Made by a program: the position numbers and the translations under genes
The notes under the pieces: model-generated
The model's input: only the letters and a program-made list of their open reading frames with translations
Database searches by the model: none
Told to the model about the DNA's origin: nothing
Assembly: GCA_963843575.1 (NCBI GenBank)
Contig: CAWJKZ010000009.1
Coordinates: 32,001-96,000, forward strand
DNA length: 64,000 nt
Direction: 5' to 3'
DNA from: an uncultured Acidobacteriota bacterium
GTDB lineage: Bacteria; Acidobacteriota; UBA6911
Shown: positions 1 through 20,621 of the stretch, in pieces
Numbering within the stretch: the stretch's first letter is position 1
Layout: each line of letters begins with the position of its first letter

Positions 1-3000
1 GACAAGATCTATGCCGTCGTGCGCGGCACTGCCATCAACCAGGATGGGAGGACGGTGGGCCTGACCCTTCCGAGCGCCGAAGCCCAGGAAGCCCTCATCA
101 GCGAGGCCCTGCGCGACGGCGGCGTGCAACCCCATGCCGTACAGTATGTCGAAGCGCACGGCACCGGGACGCGCGTGGGCGATCCGATTGAGGCCGCGGC
201 CATCGGTCACGTGCTCTCAACCGGCCGCAGCGCGTCGAAGCCCTGCGTGATCGGGTCGGTCAAGACCAACATCGGCCACCTGGAGGCGGCCGCGGGCATC
301 GCCGGCCTCATCAAGGCGTCGCTCGCGCTCACGAACCGGATGATCCCGCCCAGTATTCACTTCCGCTCCGCCAATCCCGCCATCCCGTTTGACGACCTGC
401 GGCTGCGGGTGGCGACCGAGCTGCAGCCCTGGCCGTGCAACGGCGGCCGGGCACTGGCGAGTGTCAACTCCTTCGGCTTCGGGGGCGCAAACGCCCACGT
501 CGTGCTCGAAGAAGGCCCCCGGCCAGACGATGCCGTGAGTATCCGGGATCACGAGCCCCTCTGCATCCTACCCATCTCGGCCCGGCATCCGGGTTCCCTC
601 CGGGAACTCGCCCGCCGTTACCGCGACCTCCTCGCCGGGGCCGACGCCCCGCCGCTCGCGGACCTGTGTTACAGCGCCGCGGTGCGACGCAGCCATCACC
701 CGCACCGCGCCGCCTTCGTCGGGCCCGGCCGCGCGGAGATGATCGAGCAGTTGGATTCCTTCCTGTCCCGTGACGACCCCCCTGCGCCGGGACGCGGCGC
801 CCGCGCCAGGGAACCGAAACTGGCGTTTGTCTTCACCGGCATGGGACCGCAGTGGTGGGGCATGGGACGCCAGCTCTTCGACACCGAACCGCTCTTCCGG
901 GAGGCCGTCGAGGAGTGCGACCGGCTGTTTCGGGGCGTCGGCACCTGGTCGCTGATGCAGGCCCTCGGGGCCGACGAGCCGCACTCCCGGGTTCACGAGG
1001 CGGACGTCGCGCCCGCCGCGAATCTCGCCATCCAGGTGGGGCTCACACGGCTGTGGCGCTCCTGGGGGATCGTCCCCGACGCCATCGTCGGGCACAGCGC
1101 CGGGGAAATCGGCGCCGCGTGGGCGGCCGGCGCCCTCAGCCTCGAGGATGCCCTCAAGGTGGCATACCATCGCGGCCGTTTGCAGTCCCGCGCGGCTGGC
1201 TCCGGGACCATGCTCGCGGCCGGTGTCTCCGAGGATGACGCCGTCCGGCTCCTCGAGGGGCTGAGCGATCGAGTCTCGATCGCAGCCATCAACAGCCCAA
1301 CTTCCGTCACGTTTTCCGGCGAGCGCGAGGCGCTGGAGCGGATCGCGACGGAGCTCGCGCGCCGGCAACGCTTCAACCGCTTCCTGCCGGTGGAGGTGCC
1401 CTATCACGCGCCCTGTTTCGATGCCTTCCGGAAGGAGTTCGTCGAGCTGCTCGCGCCGCTCGAGCCCCGTCCGCCGGCGGTGCCACTCATGTCCACCGTG
1501 TCGGGCGCATGGCTCGACGGGGCGCCCGTCGACGAGAACTACTGGTACGAGAACCTCCGGCGTTCCGTGCGCTTCGCCGAAGCCGTCGATCGGCTCGTCC
1601 AGGATGAGTACGAGCTCTTTGTCGAGATCGGTCCTCACCCTGTCCTCGCGGCGTCGATCTCGGAGTGTCTCGCCGCCCGCGCCAAACCCGGTATGACCCT
1701 CCCTTCGCTCCGCCGTAAGGAGGAGGAGCGGCGGGTCCTGCTGCGTTCGGTTGCGGACATTTACAGTCGCGGCCGGCGCGTCGAGTGGTCCGGCGTCTGC
1801 GGAACCCGCAGGTTCGTTCCGTTGCCGCGCTATCCCTGGCAGCGGGAACGGTACTGGTTCAACGGGGAGGAGGGTTCCGCCCACGGGCCTTCGGGCACCG
1901 ACAGCGGGCACCCGCTGCTCGGATACCGCCTGCGGTCGGCGCGCCCCACCTGGGAGGTCGAGCTGGGCCGGCCGCAGCTCGATTACCTCGACGATCACAT
2001 CGTCCAGGGGAACCCCGTGTTCCCGGCTGCCGCCTACGCGGAGCTGGCACTGGCGGCCGCCCGCGAGATAGCGCCCGGTACCGTCCCGGTCCTGGAGGAA
2101 CTCGCGTTCCGGAAGGTGCTCTTCCTGACCGAGCGCAAGGAGGGGCTCCTCCAGTTTGTGCTCGACCCGCAGCGTTCCTCGTTCGAGATCCACGGCGCCT
2201 CCGGGAACGGCGGGGCCGCATGGACCCTGCACGCCGACGGCAAGCTGAGGACCCGACCGGCTGAGTCCGGGCCGCAGGCGGCCGACATCGCCGGGATCCG
2301 CGGGCGCTGCCCGGACGAGGTGCCTGCGGCCTCGGCCTATCAGGCCCTGGAAGCCAGGGGGCTCTGCTACCGGGGCGCCTTCCGCGGCATCGAGGCGCTC
2401 TGGCGCGGCGGCGGCGAGGCGCTGGCCCGCATCGGGTCGTTAACGGCAACCCAGCCGGATGCCGGCCCATACCGCATCGATCCGGCGCTGCTCGACTCCG
2501 CGTTCCAGGCCATGCTGGCGGCCGCCGAGTCGGCGGGTGCGGGCCGCATCAACGCGAGAGGCCTCCACCTGCCCGTGTCGATCCGGCGGCTGACGCTCTG
2601 GCGCGAGCCCGGACCAGGGTTCTGGAGCCATGCGAAGGTCACCCGGTTCGACACCGAGGTTCTCGAAGGCGACATCACGATCGCGGACGAGAAGGGGGAG
2701 GTCGCGATGGCGATCGAGGGCCTCCGGTGCAAAACCCTCGACAACAGCGCGAGGTCGGCGCGGACCGGACTGGACGATCTGCTTTACCAGCTCAGCTGGG
2801 AACGGGAGCCGCTCAAGAGACGGGCCGCCCGCGAGGCGATGGCGGTTCGGGGCGCGGCGGAGCTGGGGGCACGGATGCAGCCCGTGGCCGACCGCCTGGC
2901 GGCAGCAGAAGGGCGATGGTCGGAGCGGCTCGAGCACGAGCCTGAAGTCACTGCAATCGTCGCCCACTTCGCGCGGGCCGCCTTTATCGCCCTCGGGTGG

Positions 3001-6000
3001 AATCCCGGCACATCCCTGCCCAACGATGCCGAGGCCCTGTCCGCGCGCCTCGGCATCGCCGGCCGCCACCGCCGATTCTTCGGGCGGCTGCTCGAAATCG
3101 TGCGGGAAGCCGGCGGTCTGGGCGGGTCGGCCGACACGGCCGACTCGCAACGCCTCGCCGCCGAAGGACTGTGCACGCGCCTGCTGGAGGAGTTTCCCGA
3201 GTGCCGGGCGGTGGTCGATTTGCTGCGGCGCTGCGGCGCGCGTCTGGACGCCGTCCTGAAAGGCGAGCTGGATCCGCGCGAAGTGCTGTTCGCGCCGGAG
3301 GCGGTGTCGTCTTGGGCCCATTTCTTCATCGAAGACCCATTGTACGAATTCTATAACACGCTCGTCGCGGAGACTGTTGCCGCCGCAGTAAAGGAGGTCC
3401 CGCCCGACGCCCGGCTGCGGATCCTCGAGATCGGGGCCGGCACGGGCGGAACGACGGTGCCCGTGCTCAGTCGACTCGCGAACCGACACGTCGAATACCA
3501 CTTTACCGACGTGTCGACGTTCTTCCTGGCCGAAGCGCGCGACCGCTTCAGAGCTCAGTCGAACGTCCGCTTCAGCGCTCTCGACATCGAATCGGACCCG
3601 GTAGCTCAAATCGGGGCCGAGCCGTTCGACATCGTTCTCGCGGCCAATGTCCTGCACGCGACGGCCGACCTGCGCAGGTCGCTGAAACACATCCGCCAGG
3701 TGCTTGCGCCGGGAGGGCTGGTCATGCTGCTCGAGGCGACGCGCAAGATCGCCTGGGCGGATCTGATCTTTGGCATGACGGAAGGATGGTGGCGCTTCGC
3801 CGACCTCGATCTGCGTCCCGACTACCCCCTGCTCGAACCTCATCAATGGAAGCGGGTTCTCGGCGAGGCAGGCTTCGAGGAGGCAGCAGGGATCTCGGAT
3901 CCGAACAGCGACAACGGCTCCATGCAGACTGTGCTGCTGGCGACACTCCCGAAAAAGGCCGGACGGGCTGCCGACACTCGGGTGGCGAAGGGCTGGGTCG
4001 CCGTTGTCGACTCCTCGGGTTTCGGGGCGCGGGTCGCCGCGGCACTGCGAAGTCAGGGCGACCGCTGCGTCTGCGTCGCCGGCGGAGGAGACTACTCGCG
4101 CGATGGCGACACGGTGCGGATGGCGCTCGACCGCCCCGATCATGTGGCGCACCTCGTCGAAGAACTGGCGGCGGAGGGTTTCGAGATCCACGGCTTGATC
4201 CACGCGTTGAGCCTCGACATCCCCGGTCCGGCCGGGTTGAGCGCCTCCGAGGTGGTAAGCGCACCTCAGGCGTCGTGCGACAGCCTGATCGGCCTGGTCA
4301 AAGGCTTCGATCAGGCCGGACGGGCCTTGCCGCCCATATGGCTCCTCACCTCGGACGCCGAAGCGATCGAGCCCGGGCAAGCGGCGGCGAACCTGACCCA
4401 AGCCCCGCTCCGGGGTTTCGGCCGGGTGCTGGCAAGCGAGTTCTCAGGCATCCGCTGCCGGCTCGTGGACCTTGGTCCGCGGCCCGAAGAAGGCGAGGTT
4501 CAGGCTTTGCTCGACGAACTCGAAGCCGACGACGTCGAGGAAGAGGTGGCGCTGCGCGGGTCGGAACGGTACGTGGCCCGATTGCGCCGGAGGCGCCTTG
4601 ACGATCTCCATCCGGCCGATCGCGTCCGTGCGCTGTCGCCGGACGCGCACGGCTTCAGGTTGGACATCGACACGCCCGGTGCGCTCGAGAGCCTGATGTT
4701 GCGCGAGACGCCCGATCGGCGGCCCGGGCGGGGGAAGTCCTCATCCGCGTGTTTGCGGCCGGCCTCAACTTCCGCGACGTGATGCTGTCGCTCGGCATGC
4801 TGCCCCCGATGACGATCCCGGGGGCGGCCGGCAAGACGATCCTGGGCTTCGAGTGCGCGGGGGTGGTCGTCGAGTGCGGCGCGGGAGTGGAAGACGTCCG
4901 CCCGGGCGACGAGGTGATGGCCGTGGCGATCGGGGCTTTTGCCTCGCAGGTCGTCACCCGTGCCGAGCTCGTGGCGCGCAAGCCCGGACACCTGACCTTC
5001 GAGGAAGCCGCCACGATCCCGCTGGTGTTCATCACGGCCCACTACGGGTTGACCCATCTCGCGCGGCTTGCCGCGGGCGAGCGGGTGCTCATCCACGCCG
5101 CGACCGGCGGGGTGGGGCTGGCGGCGATCCAGCTTGCCCGGCGGGCCGGCGCCCGGATCTTCGCCACCGCCGGAAACCCCGAGAAGCGCGCCTACTTGAA
5201 GTCGATCGGGATCGACCACGTAATGGACTCCCGGTCGCTGGCGTTCGCCGACGAGGTGTTGGCGGACACCCACGGCGAGGGGGTCGACGTCGTGCTCAAT
5301 TCCCTGGCCGGGGAGGCGATTACGAAAGGGCTCTCCGTTCTCCGCCCGTGCGGCCGTTTCCTGGAGCTGGGCAAACGCGACATCCACGCGAACGCGCCCA
5401 TCGGCCTGCTCCCCTTCGACAAGAACCTCTCCTTCTCCTCGATCGCGCTGGACCGGATGTGCCTCGATCAGCCTGCCCTGGTCGGCTCCCTCCTGCGGGA
5501 GATCGCAGCGCTTTTGGAGGACGGGGGACTCCAGCCCATTCCCCACAACGCCTTCGACCTTTCCGAGGCAGAACAGGCTCTGCGCCTCCTGGCCCAGGCG
5601 AAGCACATCGGCAAGCTCGTGCTCACGGTGCGCGGGGCGGAGTACCCGGTGGGGCCGTGTCTCGACCGGCCCGCCTGCCGTCCCGACGCGACCTACGTCG
5701 TTTCCGGCGGGCTCGGCGGGTTCGGCCTGGCAGTTGCCAGCTGGATGGTCGAGAGAGGGGCGCGCCACCTGGTCCTGATGAGCCGCAGCGGCGCACCGTC
5801 GGTCGAGAACCGGCCGGCGTTCGACGCGCTTCGGGAATCGGCCGCGGACGTCGTGGTGTTCAAGGGCGACGTGGGCGACGAAGACGACGTGCGCCGCATG
5901 CTGGGCGAGATTCGAGAGAACCTGCCGCCGCTCCGAGGCGTCGTGCACGCCGCCATGGTCCTCGACGACGCGCTCCTGGCGCAGCTCAACGCCGAGCGGT

Positions 6001-7697
6001 TCCGCGCGGTGCTCTCGCCCAAGGTCGGCGGGGCGTGGAACCTGCATCGCCTGACGGCGGCCGACGAGCTCGACTTCTTCGTCATGTTTTCGTCCACCTC
6101 TTCGCTGCTCGGCATGAAGGGGCAGGCTAATTACGCTGCCGGGAACGCATTCCTCGACGCGCTCGCCCCCTATCGCCGCTCGCTCGGGTTGCCGGCGCTG
6201 ACCGTCAACTGGGGCGGTATCGCCGAGGTCGGCTATTTGTCGGTCCATCAGGACATCATGCAGCTCCTGAACCGCCACGGACTGGAGTCGATCACCCCGG
6301 CGGAGGCTACCGACGGGTTGGCGGAGGCCTTGCGGTCGGGGGTCCCCAGGTTGACGATCATGCGTGTCGATTGGGCCCGATATTCGTCGATAGATGAGGC
6401 TTCGGCGTTCGTGAAGAAGGCGCGGCGCCTGGCCCACTTCCTCTCCACAGAACAGGCCGCGGCCCCGGATGCGGCGGCCGGGCGCGGGTCGCTGTTGACT
6501 CTCCTGCTGGAGTCGGAGCCCGATCAGAGGCGAGCTCTGGTAGAGGGCCGGGTGGCGGAAAACGTGGCGCGTGTGCTCGGCACGTCTGTCAAGAAAATCG
6601 ACCCGGGTGCGCCACTCACCGACATGGGCGTCGATTCGCTGATGGCCGTCGAGCTGCAGACAATCCTCAAGCGCGACTTCGGGGTATTCCTGCCGCTCAC
6701 TTCTTTTCTCGAGAGCGTCTCGGTGGTACAGCTCGCGACCAAAGTACTCGGGCAACTCGCGGACGAGGCCACACCCGCACCGGGCGCGACGCCGGAGGCG
6801 GTCGCCCCGGCCGGGCCCGAAGAGGCAGGCGAAAGCACTCTGACGGCAAAAGCGCCGGCGAGGGCGCCGGACCTCCCGGCCGTCGAGGTGCGCAACTGTG
6901 CCCCGGTCGAGCCGTCGCCCGCAACACCCGAGTCGCTCCCTGCTGCCGCGGCAGCGAGGGTGGTCGATCCACCCAGCGATCCGATCATGCGGCGGCCGGA
7001 ACGCCCGGCAGGCCTTCCGGTCAAAACGGGCGGCTCCGAATCGATCGACGGCCGCTGGACCCCCATGGAGAAGTTCGTCAAGCGCGTGCTCTCGCTGGCG
7101 TTCGGGCTGCTGGCGCGCGTAGAGGTCACCGGTCTCGAGAATCTGCCGCGCTCGGGCCCCGTGCTGCTGGCCGTCAATCACCTCAGCATGATGGATCTCC
7201 CCCTGCTGGTCACAATCGTGCCGCGACGCGGTATTTGCCTGGCGGCCGACCGGCTGCAGGAGCAGCCGTGGGCCCGTTGGTTTCTCGATCTCGCCCACAG
7301 CATCTATGTCCGTCGCGGCGAGGCCGACCAGGATGCGCTCGACAAAGCACTGGCCGTTCTGCGGGCCGGGCGTCTGCTCGGCGTCGCGCCTGAAGGTACC
7401 CGAAGCCGCTCCGGTCTCGCACGGGGACACTCGGGACTGGCTTACCTGGCCGCCGCCGCGCCGGCCCCGATCCTGCCCGTTGCGGCCTATGGCCAGGAGC
7501 GGATTCCGGGCAACGCGAAGCGGTTGCGGCGCACGCGCGTGGAGGTGCGCATCGGGTCGCTCATTCAGGTCGAGCCAGGCGAGAAGGCCGCAGCCGAGCT
7601 CCGCCGCATTACCGATCGGGTCATGGAGGCGATTGCCGCCATGCTGCCCCCGGCCTACCGCGGCGTTTACGCCGGGGTGTCCGAACGATCTGCATAA
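1..7697 (+). CDS. Highly reducing type I PKS, 5'-truncated by window edge: (KS)-AT-DH-C-methyltransferase-ER-KR-ACP-PlsC-like acyltransferase; one frameshift at ~4730-4734
   Basis: KS motifs EAHGTGT and GSVKTNIGHLEAAAG; AT GHSAG; DH HPLLG and HIVQGNPVFP; MT LEIGAGTGG and NVLHAT; ER IHAATGGVGLAA; KR GGLGGFG, LDD and YAAGN; ACP MGVDSL; acyltransferase NHLSMMD and PEGTRS. ORFs 19-4782 and 4749-7697 join as RPGRGEVLIRVFAAGLNFRD if one G is added to the G5 run at 4730-4734. Confidence 0.93.
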
Positions 7698-8121
7698 GTG
7701 GTCCGCCTCGGCCCGTCGGCCGGCACCGCTCTGTTGTCTCGGCGCTACGACCTGCAAGCTGGTTGATGTCCTCGCCATGCAGGACAAAGGAGGCGAATCC
7801 GCTACGGATTCAGTCAATCTTCCTTTCGGGCCGGAGAGGTCCTGATTTTCCGATCGGACTCAGGAAAAATCACAGAATAATTTAAGTTAAGTTAGGTGAA
7901 TAACGAGGATCTTAGGGACGGTTCTGTGGGAGGCGCCCTGGGCGACCAGGGCGCCTCCCCGATCGGCGACGCTGCAGATGCCCCTCCCGCCGCCGCGCCC
8001 CGGAAGGCTGACGGCTCCGTGTTACCATGGCCGTAGCAGATGACAAGAGTGCCAAGAAAGGGAAGAGCAAGTATGAGTGCCTTTGAAGGACTAAAGCAGA
8101 ACCCATCCATGGTGGATAAAG

Positions 8122-8334
8122 TTGATCTTCATGACGCTAGTCATTCGGGCTACTCTCGGCGTCCTTGGACTCACAGGGTTCTACCTCTGGTTTCTCTTCC
8201 CGGTGCAGAAGATCCGCGGTCTTAAGTATCTGGAAACTCCCCACTTGATCCTCTATCACGCCATCCTTGGTCTGCTGGATGTGGCTGGGATCATCCTGTT
8301 TGCGCAGCTGCTCTATTTTCGACGCGTTAACTAA
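8122..8334 (+). CDS. Possible small membrane protein
   Basis: 70-aa ORF with two hydrophobic segments; family not recognised. Confidence 0.3.
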   Translation: MIFMTLVIRATLGVLGLTGFYLWFLFPVQKIRGLKYLETPHLILYHAILGLLDVAGIILFAQLLYFRRVN

Positions 8335-8773
8335 CGTGCATCCGTACGGATAGGTTTGCCTTCTCAGCAGAATCTGTGGATGGCGCAGGCCATCAAATCT
8401 GCGTAAAACCAACTGAGGAAAGACACCTTACTACCTTTGGGAAGCCGAAACTTCCCGGGGGTCAGAATAGAAAGGTAGAAAACTCCCTATGGCTTTGCCA
8501 CAGGCCGAAAGCAAGCTTTCCTTCAATCGTTTTTCCGCTCGATGCTAGGCACATGCCTAGTTGTCACCGTCGGTCGCCTTTGGTTATTGTGCCATTAGAA
8601 CCGATACGGGCCGCCGGTGATGTTTGTCTTGCTAACGCGCCACGATGACCCCAAGCCTGCTCTCCACGGCTAGCCGGTTTCTGACTGCTCCAACTTCGAC
8701 GGATGAGGTCAGACAGTACGCCTGAACCTTCTGGTGGAGGGCGCGGTGGCGAATCGCTTCAAGGGGGAGAGGG

Positions 8774-17335: not shown

Positions 17336-20300
17336 ATGATTGAGAAGCTCATTGAGTTTTCCGCGCGTGAGAAGTACATCGTTCTTCTCTTTACCGCCGC
17401 CGTCGTGGCCTTCGGCATCTGGACGATGTACAACCAGCCCGTGGATGCCATCCCCGATCTTTCGGATACGCAGGTCATCGTGTACTCCAAGTGGGATCGC
17501 TCACCCGACATCATCGAGGATCAGGTCACGTATCCTATTACCACGGCGCTGCTCGGCGCGCCCAAGGTTAAAGCGATTCGCGGTTTTTCTGACTTCGGCT
17601 TTTCCTACGTGTACATCATTTTCGAGGACGGGACCGACATCTATTGGGCCAGGAGCCGCGTGCTCGAATACCTGAGCAAGGTGCTTCCTTCTCTCCCCGC
17701 CGGAGTCAAGACGGAGATCGGCCCGGACGCCACCGGCGTGGGATGGGTTTTTCAATACGCCCTGGTGGACGAGAGCGGCACGCATACGCTGGCCGATCTG
17801 CGATCCTTCCAGGATTGGAACCTGCGCTATGCGCTGCAGGCGGTCCCGGGCGTGGCCGAGATCGCCACGATCGGCGGTTTCCAGAACCAGTACCAGATCA
17901 CCGTGGATCGGGAAAAGCTGGCCGCCTACAACATCCCCCTCATGATGGTGTCGGAAGCGGTGCGCAATTCCAACGTCGAGGTGGGCGCAAGGCTGATCGA
18001 GTTCTCCGGCGCGGAGTACATGGTCCGCGGCCACGGATACATCAAGAACGCGCAGGACATCGAGCAGATCGTCGTCAAGACCAACGATCGCGGCACACCG
18101 GTCCTCCTGCGCGACATCGCCAGGGTCGAGCGCGGGCCCGAGATGAGGCGCGGCGTCGCCGACCTGGACGGAAAAGGCGACACGGTGGGCGGCATCGTGG
18201 TGATGCGGCACAGCGAGAATGCCGACAAAGTCATCCGCCGGGTCAAGGAGCGGCTCCAGGAACTCCAGCCTTCCCTGCCCAAGGGCGTGAAAGTCGTCAC
18301 CACCTATGACCGCTCGGAACTGATCGAGGGCTCCATCAACAATCTCAAAGAAGAGTTGATCCTCGAGATGATCATCGTCAGCTTTGTGATCCTGATCTTC
18401 CTCTGGCACATCCCGTCGGCCATCATCCCGATTGTCACGATTCCGGTGTCGGTGCTGCTGTCCTTCATCCCCATGCACTTGATGGGGCTGAACTCGAACA
18501 TCATGTCCCTCGCCGGCATCGCCATCTCCATCGGCGTGCTCGTGGACGGCGCCATCGTCGAAGTCGAGAATGCCTACAAGAAGCTGGAACTCTGGATCGA
18601 GGGAGGACGCCAGGGAGACTTTCATGCGATCCGGCTCGAGGCGCTCAAGGAGGTCGGACCGTCCGTGTTCTTTTCGCTGCTGGTGATCGCGGTCGCCTTT
18701 CTGCCCGTCTTCACGCTGGTGGATCAGGAGGGACGCCTTTTCCGGCCGCTGGCTTTCACCAAGAACTTCGTCATGGCCATTGCCGCCATTCTCGCGGTCA
18801 CCCTGGATCCGGCGATGCGAATGATTTTTGCCCGGATGGACTATTTCAAATTCCGGCCGCGCTTCGTGTCCTGGATAGTCAATCAGGTGGCGGTGGGAAA
18901 GTATTACAAAGAGGAGAAGCACCCGATCAGCCGCTTGCTGTTCCGGATTTACGAGCCTCCCGCGCGCCTGGTGCTGAAGCACCCGAAGACGACCATCGCC
19001 ATCGCCTTGATTCTGGTCGCGACCACCGTGCCGGTGTACCTCCGGCTCGGCAGCGAGTTCATGCCGCCGTTGAACGAAGGCACCATCCTTTACATGCCCA
19101 CCACGTTGCCCGGCATATCCGTCTCGGAAGCTCAGACGATCCTGCAACATCAGGACCAGATGATCCGGGCATTTCCCGAGGTGGAAAGGGTCTTCGGCAA
19201 AGCGGGACGGGCGGAGACTTCCACCGATCCGGCGCCGTTTTCCATGATGGAAACCACCGTCATGCTCAAGCCTCCGTCCGAATGGCGCTTCAAAAAGCAG
19301 TGGTATTCCAATTGGGCGCCCGATTGGTTGAAGAAACACGTCTTGAGCCGGATCGCACCGGAGCATATTTCCTGGGATGAACTGATCGCCGAACTCGATC
19401 AGAAGGTGCGCATCCCCGGCGTGACCAACGCATGGACCATGCCGATCAAGGCGCGCATCGACATGCTGTCCACCGGCGTGCGAACTCCGATCGGCATCAA
19501 GGTTCTCGGTCCGGACCTCGGCGAAATCGAAAAGATCGGCGCCCGCCTCGAAACGCTGCTGCGGAATGTGCCGGGAACGCGGTCCGTTTTTGCCGAACGG
19601 GTGGCCGGGGGCTACTTCCTCGATTTCGACCTGAGACGGGATCAGTTGGCCCGGTATGGTCTGACGGTAGCGGACGCGCAGAACATCGTCATGTCGGCGA
19701 TCGGAGGAGAGAACGTCACCACCACGGTCGAGGGGCGCGCGCGTTACCCCGTCAACATCCGTTATCCGCGCGAATTGCGCGACAACGTCGAACGGCTGCG
19801 CGAGGTGCTGGTGCCGACCCCCTCGGGAGCGCAGATCCCGATCGCGCAGATCGCGGACATCAAAAAAGTCACCGGCCCGTCGATGCTCCGCGATGAAAAC
19901 GGCATGCTCGCCGGTTACGTTTTCGTGGACCTTTCCTCCAGCGATATCGGCGGATATGTGGAAAAGGCCAAGGAGATCGTCAGTCAGGGGCTGCAGGTTC
20001 CCGACGGGGTATTCCCTCGTCTGGAGCGGCCAGTACGAAAACATGCTGCGCGTGCGCGAGCGGTTGAAGATCGTCATTCCCGTCACGCTGGTGCTGATTT
20101 TCGCGCTCCTGTACATGAACACCAAGTCGGCCATGAAAGCCTCCATTGTGATGCTCGCGGTGCCGTTCTCGCTGATCGGGGCGGTGTGGCTTATGTACGC
20201 GCTGGGATACAATATTTCCATCGCCGCCTGGGTGGGAATGATCGCCTTGATGGGGCTGGATGCGGAAACCGGCGTTTTCATGCTGTTGTTCCTGGATCTG

Positions 20301-20621
20301 TCGTATGAAGACGCCAGGCGCAAGGGACAACTGCGGAACAAAGGCGAATTGATCGAAGCCATCATTCACGGAGCGGTGAAGCGGGTCCGGCCGAAGGCGA
20401 TGACGGTGATGGCCGCATTTATGGGATTGATGCCGATCATGTGGTCGGCCGCCGTCGGGGCGGACATGATGAAGCGCGTGGCCGCGCCCATGGTCGGCGG
20501 ACTCGCAACTTCGTTCGCGCTGGAACTGCTGGTCTACCCCAGCATCTATTACCTGTGGAAATGGCGTGCCGAAGTCAAACATCAGACCTTCGGACCGCCG
20601 CGCGCGATCCTGGGACACTGA
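17336..20621 (+). CDS. cusA: CusA/SilA-type heavy-metal efflux RND permease (frameshift ~20000)
   Basis: DAIPDLSDTQVIV, GPDATGVGW, GSEFMPPLNEG, RIDMLSTG; C-terminus WSGQYENM, AETGVFM, GAVKRVRPKAMT in ORF 19893-20621. Confidence 0.93.

Follow-up and report, generated by a model that had tools for sequence, protein, structure and literature searches.

Acyltransferase domains of the PlsC/AGPAT type are already known at the ends of larger lipid-forming enzymes. Here we compare these and related systems with a gene at the start of a 64,000-nucleotide stretch of DNA from an uncultured Acidobacteriota bacterium (hereafter the window, G000:C9:32001-96000; source assembly of 6.68 Mb in 27 contigs, 88% complete). 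The gene encodes a methylating, fully reducing type I polyketide synthase (PKS) that ends in a PlsC-type domain, and it lies directly 3′ of a gene for a patatin-type protein with cyclic-nucleotide (cNMP)-binding domains. Two iterative methyl-branching PKS systems, MAS with PapA5 and the fungal LovF with LovD, rely on a separate acyltransferase that moves the chain from the acyl carrier protein (ACP) to a hydroxyl. They share with the window gene the chassis ketosynthase (KS)-acyltransferase (AT)-dehydratase (DH)-(C-methyltransferase, cMT)-enoyl reductase (ER)-ketoreductase (KR)-ACP, the methyl-branched saturated chains and an exit by O-acyl transfer rather than hydrolysis. However, PapA5 and LovD are separate proteins of unrelated folds whose acceptors are phthiocerol and monacolin J, and the methyl groups of MAS products come from methylmalonyl-CoA rather than from S-adenosylmethionine (SAM).

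Escherichia coli Aas (2-acylglycerophosphoethanolamine acyltransferase/acyl-ACP synthetase) offers a likeness of another kind, since its PlsC-family domain reacylates lysophospholipids with acyl-ACP supplied by a fused activating domain. The Aas-related models NF005959, NF006386 and NF005291 match the PlsC-type domain of the window at E values from 1.5e-7 to 2.7e-17. Aas, however, has no PKS and no fused ACP, the window domain scores far under the full-length cut-offs (61.8 versus 1221 bits), and the lysolipid consumed by Aas originates from lipoprotein acylation rather than from a dedicated, regulated lipase.

A report on the polyunsaturated fatty acid (PUFA) synthases of the myxobacteria Aetherobacter and Minicystis describes a C-terminal AGPAT domain in Pfa3, presumed to load the chain on the 2-position of 1-acylglycerol-3-phosphate (PMC6731297). 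There, as in the window gene, a PKS-like megasynthase for fatty acids ends in a fused PlsC/AGPAT-type domain. The Pfa enzyme differs in being a three-protein synthase of polyunsaturated chains whose ACPs sit on a different subunit and which has FabA-type dehydratases and a chain-length factor but no cMT; no lipase partner is described for it. The window gene, in contrast, is one canonical cis-AT module whose KS-AT is nearest to CurL and whose ACP stands directly before the PlsC-type domain; its Pfam matches include a single PP-binding domain and no FabA-like dehydratase/isomerase, chain-length factor or tandem ACPs. ElbD, which acts in ether-lipid synthesis in Myxococcus xanthus, has the order reductase-acyl ligase-ACP-AGPAT (PMC9131029). 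Its terminal ACP-AGPAT didomain likewise takes an acyl chain made or activated on its own polypeptide, although the chain comes from an adenylating domain rather than a PKS and the product is an ether lipid. Fusions of an acyl-AMP ligase with a lysophospholipid acyltransferase are also noted, as uncharacterised, in two further sources (PMC8460268, PMC12820801).

For the partner gene the comparison is with NTE/PNPLA6 and with yeast Nte1-based phosphatidylcholine deacylation-reacylation (PMC6995513, PMC10716787). Partner and NTE share a layout in which cNMP domains and NTE_Ploop accompany a patatin domain whose dyad is Ser-Asp, and also, on the proposal made here, the logic of deacylation followed by reacylation. 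The partner differs in being bacterial, in having two cNMP domains and in sharing its operon with the proposed reacylating enzyme, a PKS fusion. The mechanism proposed below would follow the logic of Aas and of the eukaryotic NTE routes, except that a PKS would supply the chain. Among open full texts, a scope that leaves most subscription journals outside, neither a canonical reducing, methylating type I PKS with a terminal PlsC/AGPAT domain nor its patatin partner was described in any paper that we found; within that scope the present architecture and operon logic appear new.

A conserved PKS-PlsC family

Positions 1-7697 of the window hold the 3′ nine-tenths of a single gene on the + strand, which comprises ~2828 codons when read through a frame break; no stop interrupts frame 1 between the window edge and 4782, nor frame 3 between 4749 and 7697. 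Pfam matches confirm the domain order given by an earlier note made from the letters alone, KS-AT-DH-cMT-ER-KR-ACP followed by a PlsC-type domain, and include no thioesterase after the ACP, as that note had seen, and no reductase domain either. On one polypeptide, a PlsC-type domain takes the usual place of a thioesterase behind a methylating, fully reducing PKS module that looks intact. The motif positions and the Pro/Ala linker of that description also stood, whereas its extent of the gene did not, because the window edge cuts the gene and the N-terminal half of the KS lies 5′ of the window. The likely start is an ATG at G000:C9:31212 (L003:17212), 788 nt 5′ of window base 1, which is preceded by GGAGGA and opens an N terminus, MNDAVTANRFAIVAIGCRFPGG, that begins as the homologues do.

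The C-terminal half of the KS occupies 1-363 (Ketoacyl-synt_C, residues 4-121; EAHGTGT 151-171 and NIGHLE 268-285). Its N-terminal half contains DTACSSS, and the ketoacyl-synt N-terminal domain is matched in L003:16792-19998. A KS-AT linker (373-771; KAsynt_C_assoc, CurL-like_PKS_C and RhiE-like_linker) leads to the extender-unit-loading AT (826-1734; PF00698, E 3.2e-68; GHSAGE 1090-1107, VPYHAP 1396-1413) and to the DH (1909-2757; PKS_DH_N, PS-DH; HIVQGNPVFP 1996-2025, DSAFQ 2494-2508). The cMT follows at 3370-3879 (PF08242, Methyltransf_12, E 1.1e-20), with EIGAGTGG at 3427-3450, NVLHAT at 3646-3663 and TEGWW at 3778-3792. The reducing part consists of the ER (4755-5624; ADH_N, ADH_zinc_N and ADH_zinc_N_2; HAATGGVG 5094-5117) and a KR that is B-type by its LDD motif (5688-6224; PF08659, E 5.2e-69; GGLGGFG 5706-5726, VLDD 5958-5969, NYAAGN 6129-6146), and the module closes with the ACP (6549-6740; PF00550, PP-binding, E 3.8e-12; GVDSLM 6627-6644, with DSL at 6633-6641). 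These catalytic and cofactor motifs are those of a type I fully reducing PKS module with a C-methyltransferase. The best solved relatives are CurL for the KS-AT, the CurJ C-MT (5thy, E 1.8e-73) for the cMT and mycocerosic acid synthase (MAS) for the DH; the MAS structures 5bp1 and 9d2z are among the matches of the PKS-domain searches against solved structures.

No loading module was found in the gene, inspected up to the likely start, and the genome's only type I PKS KS is the one in this gene; the module must therefore either iterate or extend a preformed fatty-acyl primer. An aromatic residue precedes the His in the VPYH block of the AT, a block typical of the family, which by analogy with the HAFH/YASH rule we take as a sign of malonyl-CoA. 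This suggests malonyl-CoA as the extender unit and SAM as the source of methyl branches, since with malonyl-CoA loaded by the AT the methyl groups would come from SAM.

Downstream of the ACP, an Ala/Pro-rich flexible linker of 97 residues (6762-7052; 20 Ala and 19 Pro) leads to the PlsC/LPLAT-type acyltransferase domain, the proposed chain-release domain (7053-7694; PF01553, E 2.5e-27). It carries motifs I-IV of the LPLAT/AGPAT superfamily (HX4D, xxxR, EGTR and a proline block) as NHLSMMD (7176-7196), IYVRRG (7302-7319), PEGTRS (7389-7406) and PILPVA (7467-7484), together with the PlsC fold. In a sequence search of solved structures its sole relative is the lysophosphatidic acid (LPA) acyltransferase PlsC of Thermotoga maritima (TmPlsC; 5kym, E 3.5e-15), and the alignment covers residues 49-234 of the 247 of TmPlsC, leaving the first membrane helix without a counterpart. 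When modelled with AlphaFold2 from an alignment of six sequences (mean pLDDT 75, pTM 0.76), the domain again has 5kym as its top match in a fold search (E 6.8e-10, TM 0.58-0.60), followed by glycerol-3-phosphate acyltransferases, PatA and LpxM. The domain departs from housekeeping PlsC in its TIGR00530 (AGP_acyltrn) score of 72.5 bits against a cut-off of 102.95 and in having, in the TmPlsC alignment, no counterpart of the N-terminal membrane-anchoring helix pair. Models of acyl-[ACP]-phospholipid O-acyltransferases match it far under their full-length cut-offs (NF006386, E 2.7e-17; NF005291, E 1.9e-15), and from Aas-type models the acyltransferase part alone matches, scoring 30-62 bits where the cut-offs lie at 886-1349. 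The end domain thus belongs to the LPLAT superfamily without being the housekeeping PlsC. The genome has five further PF01553 loci; at G000:C14:610794-613070 an AMP-binding domain adjoins a PlsC domain in an Aas-like pairing.

A search with the ACP-linker-PlsC part among longer proteins (E <= 1e-3) returned 91 matches, 33 of which (P0002-P0034) combine the full PKS domain set with PF01553, the best at 62% identity; one of the 33, of 2129 aa, is without a KS. The PlsC domain alone, compared with 1.84 billion cluster representatives, gave 16,645 matches at E <= 1e-3, of which 192 reached E <= 1e-30. When the best 150 were classified by BLAST against the window's domains, 11 proved to be full KS-AT-DH-MT-ER-KR-ACP-PlsC proteins and 26 to be C-terminal pieces of such proteins, while 12 were ACP-PlsC, 7 had an AMP-binding domain before PlsC, 1 was KS-AT-ACP-PlsC, 1 was KS-AT-DH-KR-PlsC and 92, mostly weaker matches, were PlsC only. 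An alignment of 41 uninterrupted full-length homologues (2650-3100 aa) leaves all 19 of the catalytic and cofactor motifs checked recognisable. Conserved in it are the SAM motif of the cMT, NV[LVI]H[AG]T, the ACP serine and I[YWF][VLI]xR; the HX4D block reads NH[LV]xxxD in the variants listed, and PEGxR[SNVG] is retained. Every domain, the cMT and the end domain included, therefore appears to be under selection. Two outcomes named beforehand as fatal to the proposal, homologues that never carry the acyltransferase and a misjoin within the linker, did not materialize: the same fusion recurs in homologues, which excludes the misjoin. By sequence comparison the PKS-PlsC fusion is a genuine, conserved family. 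A FastTree phylogeny of the PlsC domains, built to ask about a single origin, needed 24 changes for 41 rows labelled 'PKS'; its labels are confounded by truncated metagenome proteins, and it was not used.

Three variants in the collection deserve mention. By Pfam, P0151 (1796 aa), counted above among the proteins with an AMP-binding domain, is a nonribosomal peptide synthetase (NRPS) C-A-PCP module ending in the same type of PlsC domain, and P0114 (1271 aa) is a minimal KS-AT-ACP-PlsC; P0008 (3098 aa) is a PKS-PlsC with two tandem PF01553 stretches. Homologues of ~2800 aa are at present annotated as 'SDR family oxidoreductase' or '1-acyl-sn-glycerol-3-phosphate acyltransferase', and genome-mining tools would score such proteins as PKSs without a release domain.

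Probable regulated lipases beside the PKS-PlsC gene

The earlier note had advised inspecting the upstream genes, and there we found a conserved gene that it had not seen. Directly 5′ of the PKS lies a 761-aa reading frame with two cNMP-binding domains, NTE_Ploop and a patatin domain (Pfam). It has the features of an NTE-type patatin phospholipase, with GGGxR, GxSxG and DG[GA] intact as GGGARAF, GVSAG and DGG, and with Glu/Arg in both nucleotide cassettes; the best solved relative of its patatin domain is PlpD (5fqu). The TGA stop of this gene overlaps the ATG of the PKS as ATGA.

Loci were drawn from representative genomes of 185,579 species (the best 80 of 554 confirmed matches) and from JGI metagenomes (30 loci, some of them from sister samples and possibly not independent). 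Seven PKS-PlsC loci extend far enough for their neighbours to be assessed (the window, L004, L007, L084, L088, L091 and L094), and seven others end inside the PKS. A cNMP-NTE-patatin gene stands directly 5′ of the PKS in all of the seven but L088, at a distance of -4 nt (the ATGA overlap) in the window, L084 and L004 and of +11, +63 and +119 nt in the others. In L088 (657-2327) its place is taken by a gene whose protein joins an LCAT-type lipase domain of the alpha/beta-hydrolase kind to two FHA domains; from these domains it is probably another regulated lipase, exchanged for the patatin by function.

Simpler operons in two other Acidobacteriota repeat the arrangement. In L008 (3470-12574, from a Terriglobia metagenome-assembled genome, MAG) and L129 (G200:C59; 7708-12196), a fatty-acyl-AMP-ligase-like gene, a cNMP-NTE-patatin gene and a gene for a 361-aa ACP-PlsC didomain protein stand in a row. 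These operons are nearer to ElbD than the window gene is, and by their gene content they appear to follow the same logic, with a fatty-acid activator replacing the PKS. L008 also has a convergent second patatin gene and a phospholipase C/phosphoesterase gene.

Further genes around the pair were considered as partners. Preceding the patatin gene, at G000:C9:26607-28760 (L003:12607-14760), is a gene for a cytochrome P450 with two C-terminal cNMP domains, the same regulatory module as in the patatin protein. It was rejected as a core partner, given that G001 and G002 match its cNMP part alone, with no P450 near a PKS, and that L084 has minus-strand genes 5′ of its patatin gene; it may still act in this organism. 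Wider synteny was rejected too, the genes 5′ of patatin in L122 and L123 (fumarase, NAGS-type acetyltransferase, Ser/Thr kinase and citrate synthase) being unrelated to lipid metabolism. A second NTE-type patatin gene of the genome (G000:C17:213508-214842) lies away from any PF01553 match.

Proposed lipid remodelling and its alternatives

The analysis establishes which domains and motifs are present, which fold the end domain has, and that the fusion and its pairing with a lipase gene are both conserved; from this we infer iterative action, a product, transfer in cis, an acceptor and cNMP control, as follows. Most likely in repeated cycles, the single, stand-alone PKS module would build or lengthen a saturated acyl chain bound to its own ACP, with the cMT adding methyl branches from SAM. 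The PlsC-type domain, held by its Ala/Pro tether, would accept the chain in cis from the ACP and, at the membrane surface, join it as an ester to the unoccupied hydroxyl of a lysophospholipid; this donor and this acceptor are suggested by the order of the domains, by the tether and by the neighbouring lipase gene. The translationally coupled NTE-type patatin phospholipase would provide that acceptor by removing a phospholipid acyl chain when its cNMP sites are occupied. The pair would then form a cNMP-gated deacylation/reacylation module that swaps ordinary acyl chains for a polyketide chain, and the conserved unit would be tripartite, combining a regulated phospholipase, a PKS or ligase as the source of acyl chains, and an ACP-PlsC. 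The earlier note rightly saw a PKS and a PlsC-type domain on one polypeptide but not the genes upstream; because a cNMP-NTE-patatin partner is conserved, the likely biology shifts from de novo synthesis to regulated remodelling. We put the probability of cNMP-gated lipid remodelling with a PKS-made, methyl-branched chain, the frame break being an assembly error, at about 0.55.

Several observations weigh against this proposal. NTE-type enzymes can strip both acyl chains and leave a glycerophosphodiester rather than a lysolipid, and the patatin could equally degrade the product. The end domain scores below the curated TIGR00530 cut-off, and the first 48 residues of TmPlsC have no counterpart in it, so that membrane insertion and acceptor may differ. 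At L005, a ligase-PlsC locus, no patatin could be found in the sequence within range. ElbD is the nearest precedent with an ACP-AGPAT didomain, and its acyltransferase activity could not be demonstrated in vitro (PMC9131029). Two further points, a broken relative and unbridged reads, concern the frame break and are taken up with it below.

The alternatives differ from regulated remodelling chiefly in the acceptor. The PKS-PlsC might instead feed a de novo pathway, acylating 1-acyl-glycerol-3-phosphate or glycerol-3-phosphate without any lipase, with the patatin serving turnover, recycling or removal or being merely co-regulated. The best structural and sequence relative of the domain is indeed an LPA acyltransferase, the arginines of motifs II and III, which, judging by studies of E. 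coli PlsB, presumably bind the acceptor's phosphate, do not vary in the alignment A1, and the tandem PlsC domains of P0008 look as if made for two successive acylations; the same reading has been given for the AGPAT domain of Pfa3 (PMC6731297). De novo acylation nevertheless leaves unexplained why a regulated lipase, whether patatin or LCAT type, lies directly 5′ in 7/7 assessable loci, with a start/stop overlap in 3, and why a patatin gene sits between ligase and ACP-PlsC in L008 and G200, and we consider it rather unlikely. Less probable again is an acceptor other than a glycerophospholipid, the chain going to some other hydroxyl or amine, for example on a lyso-ornithine lipid, the sugar of a glycolipid, a polyol or a small alcohol from secondary metabolism. 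The sub-cut-off PlsC score would suit such an acceptor, as would the LPLAT fold matches to PatA, which has a sugar acceptor, and LpxM, a weak match to the lyso-ornithine-lipid acyltransferase OlsA (E 2.8e-5), and the occurrence of this PlsC clade at the ends of an NRPS module (P0151) and of KS-AT-ACP (P0114), where it behaves as a general release domain. However, TmPlsC is clearly the best fold match (E 6.8e-10 versus 6e-5 for PatA and 2.9e-4 for LpxM), and the partnership with a phospholipase points to acceptors derived from phospholipids. That the domain is a hydrolase, a thioesterase substitute releasing free methyl-branched acid, seems very improbable: although the gene has no other release domain, all four acyltransferase motifs, the acceptor-binding blocks included, are kept in the 41 homologues, and where simple release is needed, sister PKSs built on this chassis have a thioesterase (P0079) or reductase domains (P0057, P0077) instead.

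The frame break raises a different alternative, namely that the gene is a true pseudogene in this organism, with a real one-base deletion and a decaying system. The frameshift suspected near 4730-4734 is real in the assembled sequence. Frame 1 passes to frame 3 at a single-base deletion in a C/G run at ~4722-4735, recognized by comparison with homologues: P0002 and P0003 read RRPGPGEVLIRV across the junction, where the window reads cggcggcccgggcgggggaagtc and is one base short within cccgggcggggg. Read through it, the ~2828 codons fall inside the homologue range given above. Decay would agree with the rare and patchy occurrence of the system and with the state of the closest relative of the window PKS (L084:4995-10699, ~75% nucleotide identity), which runs in four frames and lacks the equivalents of window 326-2351 and 3825-4751, the AT domain among the losses. 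With two deletions and broken frames L084 was rejected as an intact close relative; its PKS is either decayed or misassembled, and decay in this lineage may have occurred. Nor did any contig from four public read runs bridge 4722-4735, the best run sharing 0.11 of sampled words. Against decay, essential genes of the same assembly are broken more often: within 4.2 kb, rpoB (G000:C24:252860-257103) falls into 7 pieces and changes frame 6 times, and EF-Tu (C14:794360-795544) has an in-frame TAG. Because such genes are affected even more, because the PKS has a single break in 8.5 kb, placed within a C/G run, and because all motifs are intact on either side of it, an assembly indel rather than gene decay is the most likely cause, and the pseudogene is improbable. 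Of 14 AcrB-type loci in the genome, 4 are in a single piece and ~10 are broken into adjoining pieces whose model coordinates follow on from one another, among them window 17351-20555; gene calls in this genome call for frameshift-tolerant handling.

A broader extension of the remodelling proposal is tentative, and we regard it as more doubtful than the proposal itself. Here the PlsC clade would be a general release domain of thiotemplate lines (reducing or minimal PKSs, an NRPS module and acyl-AMP ligases) that writes their products into membrane phospholipids, the PKS and ligase forms being paired with a second-messenger-gated phospholipase. On a cAMP/cGMP signal, or in one locus a phospho-threonine/FHA signal, polyketide chains would replace ordinary ones, possibly as lipase-resistant alpha-methyl esters, in a programmable bacterial Lands cycle yielding 'polyketide phospholipids'. 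If true, assembly-line products would be released straight into membrane lipids on a second-messenger signal in bacteria, and lipid O-acylation would become a fourth common release logic of PKSs and NRPSs beside hydrolysis/cyclisation, reduction and condensation. Remodelling of this kind would be a bacterial counterpart of eukaryotic NTE-based deacylation/reacylation, and it would imply that soils and sediments contain undescribed methyl-branched phospholipids, which might mislead lipid-biomarker studies or add to them.

Distribution and surroundings

A piece of the RpoB encoded by this genome matches RpoB proteins at 74-84% identity, and each of the 11 among the 120 matches listed that bear an organism name comes from an Acidobacteriota/Acidobacteria MAG. 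Besides the window, PKS-PlsC genes occur in an Acidobacteriota MAG (L004), in Novosphingobium and Sphingobium MAGs (L006 and L007), in an alphaproteobacterial MAG (L011) and in nine metagenome loci; 4 PKS-fused loci are among the best 80 matches from the representative genomes. The PKS form was found in none of 400 other Acidobacteriota genomes sampled across the phylum, and a PlsC of the same clade (E <= 1e-30) in one of them (G200, ligase type); the system was likewise found in none of 6 genomes of the same family. Since the system is so rare, it is not the source of the phylum-typical lipids of the iso-diabolic-acid type, and the link that the earlier note drew to the characteristic methyl-branched lipids of Acidobacteria finds no support. 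The branches of iso-diabolic-acid-type lipids come from iso-branched fatty acids.

The composition of the region was checked as a sign of horizontal transfer. At 0.69-0.70, the GC content of the PKS region ranks among the highest 4% of 5-kb windows, and it falls to 0.56-0.58 right after the stop codon (flanks; G000:C9:40001-58000); with a genome mean of 0.641, it is the flanks that are the odd parts. A terminator-like hairpin on the + strand at 7822-7842, ~125 nt past the stop codon, is a weak consensus match only, and the ~1 kb after the stop (7698-8770) has no open reading frame with a Pfam match. Farther 3′ within the window lie genes for a PAS-histidine kinase, a response regulator and RND efflux, which are unrelated to lipid metabolism.

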